44,026 nt of DNA from Clostridia bacterium. Its GTDB lineage: Bacteria; Bacillota; Clostridia; UMGS1810. Numbering within the stretch: position 1 is the first letter of the stretch; each line of letters opens with the position of its first letter. This document shows positions 3,513 to 41,653 of the stretch, one piece after another. Location of the stretch: the NCBI GenBank assembly GCA_017503945.1, contig JAFVSB010000155.1:1-44026 (forward strand). The letters are read 5' to 3'. The position numbers were made by a program, and so were the translations under genes. The notes beneath the pieces were generated by a model. It had not been told where the DNA came from. It saw nothing but the letters and a program-made list of their open reading frames with translations, and did not search any database.

Positions 3513-4184
3513 ATGATACGAACAGAAGATTTAGGAATCAACGGTCTTAAAATAATGCAGGATTCAGACCTTTTCTGCTTTGGCACCGATAGCGTCATGC
3601 TCTCGGATTTTGCAAGAGCCAAAGGGTCAGACACAGTGGTTGACCTTTGCACAGGCGGTGGCATTATACCTGTGCTTCTGAGTGCCAAAACAAACGCCAA
3701 AAAGCTTTGGGGCATCGAGCTTCAAAGAGCTTCGTTTGAGCTTGCGCAAAAAAACATTGAAATAAATGGCCTTGACGGCCGCATGGAGGTCATTTGTGAT
3801 GATATTGCCAACTGCCTTAGCCATTTTGCTCACGGCTCGGTAGATGTGGTCACCTGCAATCCGCCGTATATGAGCGCTTCGGCAGGCTTTCAAAATCCCG
3901 ACGAGCCAAAGGCTATAGCCCGTCATGAAATACGCACCAACCTAAAAGGTGTGATCCGGGCGGCAGAGAGCATTTTAAAATTTGGCGGTCATTTCTACAT
4001 GGTGCACAGAGCCGACAGGCTGTGTGATATCATTTGGGAGCTAAGGCAAAAAAAGCTTGAGCCAAAGCGGATTCGCTTTGTTGCCCCTTCTCCCGAAAAG
4101 GAGCCAAAGCTTGTGCTTGTGGAGGCAATGAAGGGCGCTGCCCCGTCACTTAAGCTTGAACCCACTGCATTTGTAAATATATAA
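3513..4184 (+). CDS. SAM-dependent N6-adenine methyltransferase, YabB / tRNA1(Val) m6A37 TrmN6-like
   Basis: MIRTEDLGINGLKIMQDSDLFCFGTDSVMLSDFA..., DLCTGGG SAM-binding motif and NPPY catalytic motif. The track ORF from 3306 overlaps the ferredoxin gene and its terminator, so the start is moved to ATG 3513 (GGAG RBS). Confidence 0.82.
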   Translation: MIRTEDLGINGLKIMQDSDLFCFGTDSVMLSDFARAKGSDTVVDLCTGGGIIPVLLSAKTNAKKLWGIELQRASFELAQKNIEINGLDGRMEVICDDIANCLSHFAHGSVDVVTCNPPYMSASAGFQNPDEPKAIARHEIRTNLKGVIRAAESILKFGGHFYMVHRADRLCDIIWELRQKKLEPKRIRFVAPSPEKEPKLVLVEAMKGAAPSLKLEPTAFVNI

Positions 4185-4324
4185 ATCCGAACTATTATAA
4201 ATTATTGTTTAGCTGCATACTGCTTGCTGTTTCGAAGCCGAAGCGGAAAAAGTATACCCAAACCTGCGAAGTGCATTATTTGCTAAACAATAATTTATCG
4301 TGCAATTAAAGCTTGAGTTCGGAT
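4185..4324 (+). repeat. 140-nt one-arm structured intergenic element, possibly related to the 16695 and 26760 elements
   Basis: ATCCGAACT (4185-4193) pairs with AGTTCGGAT (4316-4324). ATAAATTATTGTTTAGC (4197-4213) pairs perfectly with GCTAAACAATAATTTAT (4282-4298). It starts at the first nt after the upstream stop codon. Confidence 0.6.
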
Positions 4325-15928: not shown

Positions 15929-16692
15929 TAAATAAAAAGAAGATACTGGCCTCGGCAAATTCCGACGAGCTAAAGCTTGTTTTGTCTCATGCTTGTGACC
16001 TCTATACCAAAGCAGAGTTCTCAGGCAGGGCATTTTTCACCAAATTTCTAACCCCGTCTGATGCGTGCGAGATTAAAGCGCGTTTCCCATCTGAAAGCGT
16101 GAGCTTTTTTGGAGGATATGATGACGCCGAAAGAGTGGTGGCTTCATTTGGCGAGGTGCAAGATAAGAGCGAATATCCCATAAAGGTCATCGATGTGCGC
16201 CAAAAGGGCGGCAAGGAGCTTTCTCACCGCGACTATCTGGGCACTGTACTTTCTTTGGGCATAGGGCGCGAAATGGTGGGCGACATAATCGTGCGAGAGG
16301 GCGGCGCATATGTGTTTTGCCTTGCAGATATTGCCCCATTTATTGCTGACAGCCTTTGCAAAATAGGCGGTGCGGGTGTGAGAACTGATGTTTTAGATGA
16401 CATTTTCGATGTTAGCTTTGAACGAAAATATGAAACCAGAGGAGCCACTGTGTCGTCATTGCGCCTTGATTGCGTGGTGAGTGCAGCATGCGGCAAGTCG
16501 CGCGCGGCATCGTCGGAGCTTGTGGCGCGCTCGCTTGTGTCGGTCAACTACAAAGAGGCAAATTCTGTGAGCCTTGCCATAAAAGACGGCGATATTCTCA
16601 CTGTGAGAGGTCATGGCAAGTTTTTAATTAAAACAGACAGCCGTCTGACCCGCAAAGGAAGAATATATATTGATATATTAAAATATGTTTAA
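15925..16692 (+). CDS. ylmH: YlmH-family RNA-binding protein with S4 domain
   Basis: 255 aa with a C-terminal S4-like segment RLDCVVSAACGKSRAASSELVARSLVSVNYKE. The ATGA overlap with the sepF stop and the position before divIVA are conserved. Confidence 0.85.
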   Translation: MINKKKILASANSDELKLVLSHACDLYTKAEFSGRAFFTKFLTPSDACEIKARFPSESVSFFGGYDDAERVVASFGEVQDKSEYPIKVIDVRQKGGKELSHRDYLGTVLSLGIGREMVGDIIVREGGAYVFCLADIAPFIADSLCKIGGAGVRTDVLDDIFDVSFERKYETRGATVSSLRLDCVVSAACGKSRAASSELVARSLVSVNYKEANSVSLAIKDGDILTVRGHGKFLIKTDSRLTRKGRIYIDILKYV

Positions 16693-16694
16693 TT

Positions 16695-16968
16695 AGCCGA
16701 AAGAGAGCAATCCCAACCCGCCTGAAATGGTGAAATTTTGGCGTCTTTTGGCTTGTCATCTTTGCAAGGCACAAAGCCTTGCTTTATCTTCCGCACCAAA
16801 ATCCACTCAGAATTTCATCCATTTCAGGTCATGGAATTTTCAGAGAGCAAATTTTTGGTTGCGAAAGGCAAAAACACAGGCAATCCTGATGGATTGCCGA
16901 GTATTTTAACACAGCGAAAGTGAAAATTCGCCTCTGAAAATCGGAGTTTGGATTATTCTCTTTCGGCT
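16695..16968 (+). repeat. 274-nt closed two-arm structured element (family copy A) between ylmH and divIVA
   Basis: Closing stem 16695-16713 / 16950-16968 (12 perfect bp, G-U, one mismatch, 5 bp). Arm 1 is 16721-16828 and arm 2 is 16836-16941. Colinear with 26760-27036. Confidence 0.75.
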
Positions 16969-16985
16969 CTAAGGAGGATATACAA

Positions 16986-17466: not shown

Positions 17467-18327
17467 ATGAAAAATCTTGCATCAATTAAGGTAATTAAAG
17501 AAATTCTATCAGATTCAGGCTTTAAGTTTTCCAAGTCGCTCGGTCAGAACTTTCTTATAGACGAAAATGCTTTGGAAAAGATAGTGAGTGCAACTGAGCT
17601 CACGCCAGAGTGCGGTGCGCTTGAAATAGGCCCTGGCTTTGGCACCCTTACCCAGCGCCTTTGTATGGCAGCGGGCAAGGTTGTGTGCATCGAAATTGAC
17701 TCGGGCGCAATACCGATTCTGCAAAACAATTTGTCTGATTTTGAAAATTTTACCATAATAAATGACGATGTGCTAAAGTGTGACCTTGCAGCTATTATAA
17801 AAGAGCATTTTGACGGCATGAGTGTGAAGCTTGCGGCAAATCTGCCATACTACATCACCACACCCATCATAATGCATGTGCTTGAAGCTCGCCTTCCCAT
17901 CGATTCGCTCACAGTGATGATTCAAAAAGAGGTGGCAATGCGCATTGCTGCACCCGAAGGCACAAAGGACTATGGCGCGCTAAGTGTGGCGGTCAACTTC
18001 TATGCCATACCCCAGGTGGTAGTGCATGTGCCGCCGTCGTCATTTATTCCTCAGCCCAAGGTGTCATCAACTGTGATTAAGCTCACAATGAGAGACAAGC
18101 CCCCCGTAGAGGTGGCAAGCGAAAAGGGCTTTTTCAGCGTGGTGAAGGCATCATTTGCCCAAAGGCGCAAGACACTGCTCAATGCCTTGTCAAATTCGCC
18201 TCAGATTCCTCTTGGCAAAGCAGAGGTAAGCCGGGTGCTCTCTAAGTGTGGCATCGACGAAAAGCGCCGCGGCGAAACGCTCACCATGCAGGAGTTTGCA
18301 GATGTGGCAAATATGATTTTTAAATAA
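17467..18327 (+). CDS. rsmA: 16S rRNA (adenine1518/1519-N6)-dimethyltransferase
   Basis: KFSKSLGQNFLIDENALEKIV, LEIGPGFGTLT and ANLPYYITTPI motifs. Start moved to ATG 17467 (GGGAG RBS) because the track ORF overlaps the divIVA 3' end. Confidence 0.93.
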   Translation: MKNLASIKVIKEILSDSGFKFSKSLGQNFLIDENALEKIVSATELTPECGALEIGPGFGTLTQRLCMAAGKVVCIEIDSGAIPILQNNLSDFENFTIINDDVLKCDLAAIIKEHFDGMSVKLAANLPYYITTPIIMHVLEARLPIDSLTVMIQKEVAMRIAAPEGTKDYGALSVAVNFYAIPQVVVHVPPSSFIPQPKVSSTVIKLTMRDKPPVEVASEKGFFSVVKASFAQRRKTLLNALSNSPQIPLGKAEVSRVLSKCGIDEKRRGETLTMQEFADVANMIFK

Positions 18328-18370
18328 TACAACAGATTGATTTTTAAATAATATAACAGGCTATATATAA

Positions 18371-18424
18371 CAGAAAAGCAGAGCTGCGAGGGGGAACGCA
18401 AGCTCTGCTTTTCTGTGTTTTAAG
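18371..18424 (+). terminator. Intrinsic terminator after rsmA
   Basis: CAGAAAAGCAGAGCT (18371-18385) pairs with AGCTCTGCTTTTCTG (18401-18415), followed by TGTTTT. Confidence 0.9.
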
Positions 18425-26744: not shown

Positions 26745-26759
26745 TTTTGTCATACACTT

Positions 26760-27036
26760 TAGTGTGCCAGGATTCGAACTCTCACTGCCTGACAAATGAA
26801 AATTTGAAAAGCTTTCAGCTTGTCGGTTTTGACGGGCGTCAGCCCGCCTTCAACCTGCCGCACTAAAATCTTAATAAAATTTTCATTTGTCAGGTGCCGA
26901 GCAGTTTCACATAGACAAATTTTCTTGAAACAAAGTAAATTACGCAGGAAATACTGACGTATTTTCAAGGAATTTACTGTAGTTTCAGGTGAATTTGTCA
27001 TGTGAAACCAATGTTAGTTCGAGTCCTGGCACACTA
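26760..27036 (+). repeat. 277-nt closed two-arm structured element (family copy B) between the M23 peptidase gene and ctp
   Basis: 21-bp closing stem 26760-26780 / 27016-27036 with a single G-U. Arm 1 is 26788-26894 (17 perfect bp at the base). Arm 2 is 26904-27008. Colinear with 16695-16968. Confidence 0.75.
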
Positions 27037-27051
27037 TTCGGAGCTGATTAT

Positions 27052-28236
27052 ATGACTAAAAAAAGGCTTGTTGCCCTTTTGGCTGTGTGCTCAGTTATAA
27101 CAGCCATGCTTACCACTCTTTTTTTCCTCTCGCCACAAGGCAGGGCAGTGTATGCCACAATCGCTCAGCGCATTGGTGCAAGTCCTGCTGCTAAGCTCAT
27201 GAAGATAGAATCAATAGTAGACTCTGTGTACATGGGAGAATATGACAAAAACTGGCTCACCGACAAGGCGGCATATGAATATGCTGCTTCGGTAGGCGAT
27301 AAATACACACTCTATCTCAATGCCGCTGATTTTGAAAGCATGCAAGAAAATCTCGATGGCGGATACCGCGGCATCGGTATTCAGGTTGGTGCGAAAGACG
27401 GCAAGGTGCTCATTGACAGTGTGATGAAAGCTTCTCCTGCTGAGGCTGCCGGTCTTTTGAGCGGTGATTTTATAGTTTCGGTAAATGATGTGAGCTACAC
27501 ATCAGAAGACCTCTCAGAGGTTGTTTCGGCAATAAAGGAAGTGCCGCCTGGCGAAAGCGTCAAGCTTGGCATAGAGCGCGCAGGCGAGCTTATTGAGAAA
27601 AATGTCATAGTTAGTGATGTTGAGCTTGAATATGTAAAATCTACTCTCCTCGACGGCGGAGTCGGCTTTGTAAGAGTTGACACCTTTGGCAATGATGTGA
27701 GCGAAAAGTTTAAATCACACATAAACGCCCTCATTGAAACCGGCGCCACATCTCTTATCATAGATTTGCGCTCCAATCCCGGCGGTGCTCTTGATACTGT
27801 TGTGGATATGGTTGACTTTTTGGTGCCTGAGGGTATAATCACCACAGTTAAAGACCGCAACGGCAACGAAGAGGTCTATAGTTCTGACAAGTCAGAGATA
27901 AATCTCCCCATGTGTGTGCTCATAAATGAAAACAGCGCCAGCGCATCAGAAATCATGGCGGCAGCGCTCAGTGATTATGGCAAAGCCACCTTAGTTGGCA
28001 AAAACACCTACGGCAAAGGCGTGGTGCAGGGAGTGTATTCCTTGGGTGACGGCACAGGCCTCAGGGTAACCATAGCGCGTTATTACACCCCTGCGGGGCA
28101 GTGCATCGACGGCAAGGGTGTAGCGCCCGATGCAGAAGTTGATTTGCCGGATGGTATTTCGCTTAAGCACTTTGATGCCACCGAAGAGGGCGACACTCAG
28201 CTTGAAAAAGCAATAGATATTCTAAAGAATAAATGA
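27052..28236 (+). CDS. ctp: S41-family C-terminal processing peptidase with PDZ domain
   Basis: N-terminal TM anchor, a PDZ segment (GIQVGAKDGKVLIDSVMKASPAEAAGLLSGDFIV), and DLRSNPGG and NENSASASEI catalytic motifs. Start moved to ATG 27052; the track start 26989 lies inside the structured element. Confidence 0.9.
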   Translation: MTKKRLVALLAVCSVITAMLTTLFFLSPQGRAVYATIAQRIGASPAAKLMKIESIVDSVYMGEYDKNWLTDKAAYEYAASVGDKYTLYLNAADFESMQENLDGGYRGIGIQVGAKDGKVLIDSVMKASPAEAAGLLSGDFIVSVNDVSYTSEDLSEVVSAIKEVPPGESVKLGIERAGELIEKNVIVSDVELEYVKSTLLDGGVGFVRVDTFGNDVSEKFKSHINALIETGATSLIIDLRSNPGGALDTVVDMVDFLVPEGIITTVKDRNGNEEVYSSDKSEINLPMCVLINENSASASEIMAAALSDYGKATLVGKNTYGKGVVQGVYSLGDGTGLRVTIARYYTPAGQCIDGKGVAPDAEVDLPDGISLKHFDATEEGDTQLEKAIDILKNK

Positions 28237-41407: not shown

Positions 41408-41653
41408 TGTGTGGCATGACAGACGATGAAGCGGGAGGTTACCGGCTGCCCCAAAGCGGCCAATTTCCGTGGAGAATGTCCGGGTCCAGAATCCGGGCGG
41501 CAAGGTCACAGTGAATACCTACTCGTACTATGCCCCGGTATCCTTGTGCCGGGTTTTAATATGAGGCGGTATGACACACACGGGTGTGTGTGAACTGTTT
41601 TTATGACTGCCGATATGGCACCGAAAATCAAATTATGTTAGGAGGTACTATCA
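41408..41653 (+). promoter_or_regulatory. ~245-nt GC-rich structured leader of the S10 operon with two hairpin/U-run attenuator-like elements
   Basis: The segment is visibly GC-rich compared with its AT-rich flanks. Hairpin 41534-41553 is followed by TTTT. Hairpin ACACACA-CGGG-TGTGTGT (41574-41591) is followed by TTTTT at 41598-41602. Confidence 0.45.

Follow-up and report, generated by a model that had tools for sequence, protein, structure and literature searches.

The ylmH-divIVA Spacer and Element E1

The window, a stretch of 44,026 nt from a Clostridia bacterium (assembly GCA_017503945.1, contig JAFVSB010000155.1), carries the ylmE-sepF-ylmH-divIVA operon, whose genes were assigned to the Pfam families Ala_racemase_N (ylmE), SepF, YlmH_RBD and DivIVA on identical metagenome contigs. 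The ylmH stop codon (16690-16692) and the divIVA ATG (16986) are separated by a spacer of 293 nt, which holds element E1, a sequence closed into a two-armed fold whose nature is the subject of this account. E1 had been described in a reading made from the letters alone (the sequence-only reading), and its coordinates, closing stem, two arms, apical hairpins and placement were all borne out. Its parts, all on the plus strand, are as follows.

16694-16695, plus strand: left TA, presumed copy of the target-site duplication, in keeping with the TA...TA boundaries of family copies
16695-16968, plus strand: E1 (274 nt), most probably a miniature inverted-repeat transposable element (MITE) copy, subfamily A, outer stem AGCCGAAAGAGAG...
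16695-16717, plus strand: left terminal inverted repeat, the 5' half of the closing stem, pairing with 16946-16968
16721-16828, plus strand: arm 1 hairpin with a 7-bp apical hairpin at 16764-16782, equal to helices 1-6 of the family structure
16751-16757, plus strand: GCTTGTC, a near-invariant unpaired block on the 5' side of the arm-1 internal loop
16791-16803, plus strand: CCGCACCAAAATC, a near-invariant block comprising the 3' side of the arm-1 internal loop and the CCAAAA strand of the helix below
16836-16941, plus strand: arm 2 hairpin with an 8-bp apical hairpin at 16879-16898
16946-16968, plus strand: right terminal inverted repeat, the 3' half of the closing stem, located with a repeat finder
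16971-16977, plus strand: divIVA Shine-Dalgarno sequence AAGGAGG, host sequence outside E1; the relative L008, which has an empty site, shows the same ribosome-binding site (RBS) and the same spacing to the ATG

The closing stem pairs AGCCGAAAGAGA (16695-16706) with TCTCTTTCGGCT (16957-16968), and the repeat finder lengthened it to the 23-nt arms listed above, which are 87% complementary. The left terminal repeat contains a subterminal box, AATCCCAAC, whose family consensus ATCCGAAC is kept in most subfamilies. At the apex of arm 2, the G+C-rich 8-bp hairpin is flanked by an A-tract and a T-tract and resembles a terminator on both strands. The plus strand RNA of E1 has a minimum free energy (MFE) of -112.9 kcal/mol against -67.8 +/- 4.9 in 200 shuffles (z = -9.2, 0/200 as good), and its MFE structure is the closed two-arm shape; the minus strand folds better, at -123.3 kcal/mol (z = -10.9). 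E1 scored 286 bits with the hidden Markov model (HMM) of the family and was found 100% identical in five metagenome contigs of the same species as the window.

Empty Sites in Relatives

Sites lacking the element were sought through YlmH homologs for E1 and through the region of the M23 and S41 peptidase genes for a second element, E2, by reading the encoding contigs (L numbers denote fetched loci). The ylmH-divIVA spacer measures 17, 15 and 58 nt in relatives with a YlmH identity of 89%, 71% and 66%, respectively, against the 293 nt of the window. In L008, the closest of them (89%), the two genes lie 17 nt apart, the sequence reads GTTTAGCCAAGGAGGATGTACAAATG and E1 is absent. The ylmH stop and the divIVA RBS of the window are unchanged relative to this empty allele.

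E2 occupies the following positions.

26760-27036, plus strand: E2, in all probability a MITE copy of another subfamily, outer stem TAGTGTGCCAGG..., composed of a TA (26760-26761), a 273-nt body (26762-27034) and a TA (27035-27036)

As the sequence-only reading had noticed, E2 is a colinear homolog of E1 in the same orientation and with the same architecture. GCTTGTC-N33-CCGCACYAAAATC is exactly common to both, the terminal inverted repeats of the two elements are 23-28 nt long, and the fold of E2 has a z of -12.7. Identity between E1 and E2 is only about 54-60%, as they come from different subfamilies of a single mobile family. This divergence had been judged too great for a recently spread MITE, a view that is contradicted by the empty sites in relatives, the clean TA duplication and the existence of 95-100% identical copies elsewhere.

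The spacer between the neighbours of E2, the M23 and S41 peptidase genes, is 32-45 nt long in relatives with 95%, 85% and 80% identity (L134, at 95%, together with L136 and L137), all of which are empty. In L134, which belongs to the same sister species as L008 and whose M23 peptidase is 95% identical, the empty site reads GTCATACACTT-TA-ATCGGAGCTGATTATATG, and the filled site of the window reads GTCATACACTT-TA-(GTGTGCCAGG...CCTGGCACAC)-TA-TTCGGAGCTGATTATATG, a 273-nt insertion with the TA duplicated. The core of the junction is CACTT-TA-ATCGG in L134 versus CACTT-TA-(273 nt)-TA-TTCGG in the window. A third case was found in L009, where the rsmA stop codon supplies the TA on one side of a copy and another TA, directly 5' of the conserved rsmA terminator, stands on the other side, GAA-TA-(...)-TA-ACAGAAAAACAG; the window has no copy at its rsmA site. 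At that site (18314-18362), the final ~21 nt of rsmA, stop included (GATTTTTAAATAATACAACAG), are followed after 3 nt by a single repeat of themselves (GATTTTTAAATAATATAACAG), which precedes the conserved terminator hairpin (18370-18416).

Read against the empty alleles, the window shows E1 to be an insertion at a TA of a 17-nt ylmH-divIVA spacer, with the TA presumably duplicated and both the ylmH stop and the divIVA RBS left intact. By the same comparison, a second subfamily inserted independently at E2, in the spacer separating the M23 from the S41 peptidase gene. The mechanical list of open reading frames (ORFs) contains an 80-aa ORF on the minus strand (26759-27001) wholly within E2 and prolongs the S41 peptidase ORF upstream into E2, to a GTG start (26989-27052, plus strand), whereas relatives begin the S41 peptidase at an ATG matching window position 27053. 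Both ORF features are artefacts of the E2 insertion, and elements of this family create spurious ORFs in annotation.

Only E1 and E2 were found in the window by the family HMM. The sequence-only reading had also offered 4185-4324 as a third member, which was not upheld, as nhmmer gave no link in either direction and the TA...TA boundary is missing. This 140-nt sequence is a one-arm palindrome, ATCCGAACT...AGTTCGGAT, placed directly after the stop codon of a gene ending at 4184; it has a perfect 17-bp inner repeat (4197-4213 / 4282-4298), has nothing in common with the family but the ATCCGAAC box, and has no relative in any fetched locus.

A Large Family of TA-Bounded Copies in Gut Clostridia

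A scan for the arm-1 motif across species-representative genomes, one genome per species, returned at least 119 stretches, about 7 of which were chance matches in coding sequence. The remaining matches listed were full or partial two-arm elements, nearly all in metagenome-assembled genomes (MAGs) of uncultured, Oscillospiraceae-like gut Clostridia from ruminants, chicken, and Hadza and Nepali humans, with carrier names including Ructibacterium (Oscillospiraceae), 'Ruminococcus sp.' and 'Oscillospiraceae'. The HMM was built from the motif matches, and nhmmer located 141 non-overlapping copies in about 0.9 Mb of fetched DNA (8-kb tiles), often several per tile. One Hadza MAG had at least 16 copies in 11 tiles, and carrier genomes hold dozens of copies each, which are up to 95-100% identical within one genome. 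Many copies are located at contig ends, i.e., at assembly breaks, and the family therefore breaks MAG assemblies.

Copies have a median length of 277 nt (273-287). Exact TA...TA boundaries were found for 39 of 85 copies, most of the others being off by 1-2 nt or affected by a repeat that runs on by chance, and terminal inverted repeats are present in all full copies. No conserved ORF or peptide was detected: each anchored frame has on average about three or more stops per copy, and no more than 3 of 81 copies leave any given frame open. Tandem copies are common, with neighbours sharing a single TA at the junction, and the TA beside an existing copy is thus apparently reused as a target, which builds arrays. 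Head-to-tail copies of different subfamilies were seen at L050 (1088-2715), L093 (513-1067), L072 (5748-6302), L095 (5937-6485), L032 (1126-1665) and L116 (6157-6600).

Internal-deletion derivatives retain both ends, and three species contain derivatives that have lost arm 2 together with some of arm 1. Within the GGGTGA-type subfamily, one short derivative shows an identical deletion junction, lying between two TCAAAAT repeats, in three species-level MAGs (L026, 183-290; L129, 6711-6820; L088, 817-925), which reflects either the spread of one deletion derivative or a recurring deletion.

Taken together, E1 is very probably one copy of a non-autonomous DNA transposon, a MITE of ~275 bp that forms a large family in uncultured, Oscillospiraceae-like gut Clostridia. 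Small size, lack of coding capacity, terminal inverted repeats, a TA duplicated between empty and filled sites, many near-identical dispersed copies, and polymorphism for presence or absence are all MITE features. The sequence-only reading had set near-identical copies flanked by target-site duplications, the signs of a plain MITE, against its own proposal of a structured RNA. Such copies were found, and in addition the fold of the family is conserved over deep divergence (see below).

The clustered tandem copies and nested palindromes also recall BIMEs, and a REP/BIME/REPIN-type element kept by a RAYT, or a palindrome-associated element derived from IS200/IS605, was considered. At ~275 nt and with two arms of 107 nt each, the unit exceeds the 20-40 nt of such elements, and no GTAG-like conserved head exists beyond the TA. 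The ends of IS200/IS605 elements are asymmetric, with subterminal hairpins but without terminal repeats, and their insertion makes no duplication, whereas the present copies have symmetric terminal repeats flanked by TA at either end, and the empty site shows one TA only. An IS200/IS605 derivation was further rejected because no fixed 4-5-nt target was seen, the flanks being without consensus beyond TA. Both forms of this explanation are highly improbable. A retron msr-msd origin was likewise discarded, as the genes beside E1 and E2 are ylmH/divIVA and the M23/S41 peptidase pair, with no adjacent reverse transcriptase, and the copies number dozens per genome.

Relatives of the element were also seen outside these Clostridia. 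MAGs of Bacteroidales/Muribaculaceae contain one-arm palindromes of ~190 nt that are flanked by TA and have the ends TAAGTAGCTAAGA...TCTTAGCTACTTA and the core TTTTGGCTTGTC-hairpin-TCCGCACCAAAATC-CTCAAAAATC, in which the GCTTGTC and CCGCACCAAAATC blocks are present (L022, 5600-6100; L075, 3420-3900; L078, 3960-4440; L090, 4890-5390 on the minus strand; L111, 6570-7060), and one such MAG has at least three copies. Two predicted viral contigs of IMG/VR, found in the arm-2 motif scan, hold diverged copies with ends TAAGCATAGGGGAGTTGAAC... (L138, 1615-1866; L139, 7057-7316), which may offer a route of transfer between species. The first viral motif scan gave only chance coding matches, and blastn found no match in the GenBank plasmid and phage collections.

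Conservation of the Fold on Both Strands

The fold was examined in 81 non-redundant aligned copies using nhmmer, RNAalifold and pair counting. The plus strand consensus comprises 42 pairs, 36 of them with compensatory changes, and the union of plus and minus strand predictions comprises 71 pairs, of which 59 are changed on both sides, so that the compensatory change noticed between E1 and E2 by the sequence-only reading holds family-wide; in arm 1, most pairs show it. In the union structure, 87.3% of cells are paired, versus 73.6% in shuffles and 30-50% with slid partners, and none of 500 shuffles reached any observed pairing value. Intrastrand pairing has thus clearly been subject to selection or homogenisation. 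TTGTC is invariant in the 81 copies, and the internal-loop blocks are near-invariant. The family shape, a closing stem of terminal repeats with two arms bearing near-invariant loops, is kept across subfamilies by compensatory changes.

Quasipalindrome mutagenesis, in which template switching homogenises the two arms, can produce covariation in palindromic DNA without selection, and covariation alone is therefore no proof of selection on RNA. Nor is a particular strand favoured. The G-U pairs of E1 had been taken as tolerable on plus strand RNA only, a claim that fails at the family level: of 81 copies, 60 fold more stably as the minus strand, whose consensus comprises 61 pairs at -47.4 kcal/mol against 42 pairs at -32.6 kcal/mol on the plus strand, and the union structure contains 473 A.C mismatches, each of them a G.U when read on the minus strand, as compared with 286 G.U pairs. 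Wobble and stability asymmetry accordingly gave no signal for the plus strand as the functional one.

Two further structural ideas were set aside. Kissing of the apical loops (GTCA/TGAC, ACAAA/TTTGT) scored 3.43 versus 3.19 +/- 0.13, a weak complementarity between the arms that 64 of 2000 permutations reached, with many counter-examples. The 3' strand of arm 2 repeats the left tip of its own element in some copies (11 identical nt in L038, 2525-2799; 9/10 in L009, 8225-8500) and more weakly in subfamilies A, B and C (alignment A2, columns 236-264), which would give the right end an alternative pairing partner; as a family feature, this repeat was not significant across 14 subfamilies (p = 0.23).

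The expectation that the element belongs to no known RNA family was confirmed. Rfam 15 gave no match at E1 or E2 at the gathering threshold, and relaxing the cut-off to E values of up to 10 added nothing but chance resemblances to miRNA, snoRNA and sRNA families that scored far under the threshold; no family matched in eight loci with diverse copies. The sole Rfam match in the window is an S10-Clostridia ribosomal protein leader (RF03136) at 41417-41503, with 36.7 bits versus a gathering score of 35.1. The tRNA-like appearance of the GGTTCGA(N)TC-type ends of E2/D-type subfamilies found no echo, with ARAGORN reporting none in the window or six loci and Rfam none at the elements. A literature search for the motif and the family found no description. 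The family is new, being without an Rfam entry and without sequence similarity to known TA-terminated MITEs.

Genomic Context and Effects in the Operon

Relative to flanking genes, 30 copies are sense and 19 antisense (p = 0.15), 9 lie between convergent and 9 between divergent genes, and 1 lies inside an ORF. An RBS and start codon adjoin 33 of 71 copies, at the right end in 23 and at the left end in 10 (p = 0.035). Such proximity is expected from TA-directed insertion into short operon spacers, which offer TAA/TAG stops and TAAGGAGG, and the skew toward the right end amounts at most to a mild orientation filter.

These counts bear on the view of the sequence-only reading, which in its strongest form would make the element first and foremost a structured RNA with a function, whether as a small RNA, as a protein scaffold or as a module for processing or stabilisation, selected for its shape and mobile only secondarily or in the distant past. 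The very strong covariation, the conserved unpaired nucleotides, the almost exclusively intergenic position of copies that are necessarily transcribed when in operons, the right-end preference for an RBS and the resemblance of the arm-2 apex to a bidirectional terminator all agree with it. Against it, folding and wobble pairs show no strand preference, copies stand in both orientations to flanking genes and also between convergent genes, sites are not kept between sister species, and recent bursts have produced identical copies; the absence of an Rfam family, the weak loop-loop complementarity and an RBS proximity that any insertion into short TA-containing spacers would yield also tell against it. 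On balance, a primary function as RNA is unlikely. A strand-specific cis-regulatory RNA in fixed orientation was likewise rejected, as both sites are empty in sister species, all gene contexts are occupied and strand asymmetry is lacking.

A role tied to the ylmH-divIVA operon, as the placement of E1 had suggested, does not fit the occurrence of copies in all intergenic contexts and both orientations, and a dedicated regulatory RNA role of E1 for the cell-division operon is not supported. Lying inside the ylmE-sepF-ylmH-divIVA operon, E1 must be co-transcribed, and since the ylmH stop and the divIVA RBS are as in the empty allele, it is probably near-neutral there. Its long duplexes make it a plausible RNase III substrate or mRNA-segment boundary, and together with the terminator-like apex of arm 2 they make effects on mRNA processing possible, by analogy with Correia and ERIC elements. 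E1 would then be a passive passenger of the operon transcript, and cleavage by RNase III or formation of an mRNA-segment boundary would be a side effect and not the reason for its existence. The conserved fold would likewise reflect no role for the ylmH-divIVA operon.

What Mobilises and Maintains the Family

Judging by the TA duplication, the copies are probably mobilised in trans by a TA-targeting cut-and-paste transposase of the IS630/Tc1-mariner type that would be encoded elsewhere; the DNA read yielded no such partner.

Several observations weigh against the MITE interpretation. The 8-kb tiles contained no autonomous partner, in that neither solo terminal repeats nor an ORF bracketed by inverted repeats was seen, and no transposase family was enriched near copies, only housekeeping genes turning up. 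The subfamilies, at least eight in number, share a conserved interior but have unrelated sequences in their outer ~12 bp; the differing ends include GCCGAAAGAGAG, GGGTGACAGAAG, GCCTTAACGACC, GGCATAAGAGAG, GCCATTGAAGGA, GCCTGATGTTAG and GTGTGCCAGG, and only the subterminal ATCCGAAC box is widely shared near the termini. MITEs mobilised by IS630/Tc1-mariner enzymes, which the TA target and its duplication fit, have by contrast a conserved terminal sequence, and variable ends with a conserved interior are the reverse of the usual pattern, in which a transposase recognises the ends. Moreover, the arm-1 core is nearly identical in the one-arm TA-flanked Bacteroidales elements with their unrelated ends, and the strong covariation throughout the interior exceeds what a cut-and-paste transposase acting on double-stranded ends is known to need. 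At the right junction of E1, finally, GGC-TC-TA-AGGAGG stands where GGC-TA is expected, so that the boundary is 2 nt off.

Part of this evidence would suit a family made mobile by a structure-dependent mechanism, in which a candidate enzyme reads the arm-1 loop core on folded single-stranded DNA (or RNA) and cuts at TAs joined by any closing stem. The terminal 12 bp, although unrelated between subfamilies, are always complementary and always TA-flanked, and compensatory changes reach into the termini (GCC...GGC to ACC...GGT; CCGAAAG...CTTTCGG to CCAAAAG...CTTTTGG). GCTTGTC and CCGCACCAAAATC are near-invariant and common to Bacteroidales elements with different ends, and every helix covaries strongly. 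Symmetric ends with TA on both sides are, on the other hand, the classical DDE signature, and no strong orientation bias is seen with respect to gene direction (a proxy for replication), unlike single-strand transposition of the IS200/IS605 type. The derivatives that lack arm 2 and part of arm 1 in three species, the lack of an HUH or other candidate enzyme gene near copies, and the general ability of template-switch homogenisation to create covariation without selection also tell against it. Such a mechanism appears quite unlikely for the family.

A related idea regards the family as a mobile structured module, whose arm-1 loop (GCTTGTC ... CCGCACCAAAATC), common to elements of Bacillota and Bacteroidota despite their unrelated ends, serves as the recognition site on the folded strand or binds a conserved host RNA-binding protein, the element then acting as a mobile RNA-processing or insulator cassette. 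This idea can be given only a small probability. Were it true, the closing stem would serve only to juxtapose two TA cleavage sites, and structure-guided transposition is undescribed for TA-duplicating elements.

Under the preferred MITE interpretation, the fold may be kept through the lineage of active copies, by way of transposition competence, a low cost to the host when transcribed, or homogenisation of the palindrome. The family would thus be a widespread and apparently recently active MITE of uncultured Oscillospiraceae-like bacteria in ruminant, chicken and human guts, able to insert at TAs beside stop codons and RBSs within essential operons, here one of cell division, without disrupting them. 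It convincingly mimics a conserved non-coding RNA, covariation included, and mining for structured RNAs in gut Clostridia should recognise this mobility. That the ends vary while a covarying interior is deeply conserved and the core extends across phyla raises the question of what the transposition machinery or the host reads in a MITE.

Comparison with Known Systems

Stowaway MITEs, which are eukaryotic and derived from Tc1/mariner elements, have in common with the present family a TA duplication, fold-back potential over the whole element and bursts of near-identical subfamily copies. They differ in host, in having a terminal sequence that is conserved within a family, and in lacking conserved internal loops and a multi-arm fold.

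Among bacteria, the Correia, ERIC and RUP elements are MITEs with 5'-TA-3' termini, target-site duplications and strongly base-paired transcripts (PMC2229807). The Correia/NEMIS elements of Neisseria are likewise small and non-coding, with terminal inverted repeats, a TA duplication and many intergenic, co-transcribed copies, and their transcripts form long hairpins that are cut by RNase III (PMC2229807). They are 100-155 bp long, carry an IHF site and fold into one hairpin through conserved ends of 24-26 bp, whereas the present family is ~275 bp long, has a closing stem with two internal arms and subfamily-variable ends, is hosted by Clostridia and shows no sequence similarity to them. The RUP element of pneumococcus is also a Firmicute MITE at TA, for which mobilisation in trans by IS630-Spn1 of the IS630 family was proposed (PMC2229807); it is only 107 bp long and its ends match a known insertion sequence (IS), whereas no matching IS was found for the present family in the 8-kb tiles.

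The ERIC/IRU elements of enterobacteria are imperfect palindromes with TA termini, lie in transcribed intergenic regions in either orientation, and have an RNA structure that affects the stability of flanking mRNA segments (PMC2229807). They differ in their length of ~127 bp, in their 7-bp terminal repeats and in being largely immobile today, and no sequence similarity was found. A two-arm architecture has been described for the CIR elements (PMC2229807) of Caulobacter/Brucella, in which two long inverted repeats form two arms with a linker and a conserved motif is exposed. Their 5' and 3' ends form no closing stem, they bear no clear signature of mobility, their conserved motif is a GANTC methylation site, and neither sequence nor host is similar. 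The closest kinds to the family of E1 are Correia/NEMIS, RUP and ERIC, and, for the two-arm layout, the CIR elements.

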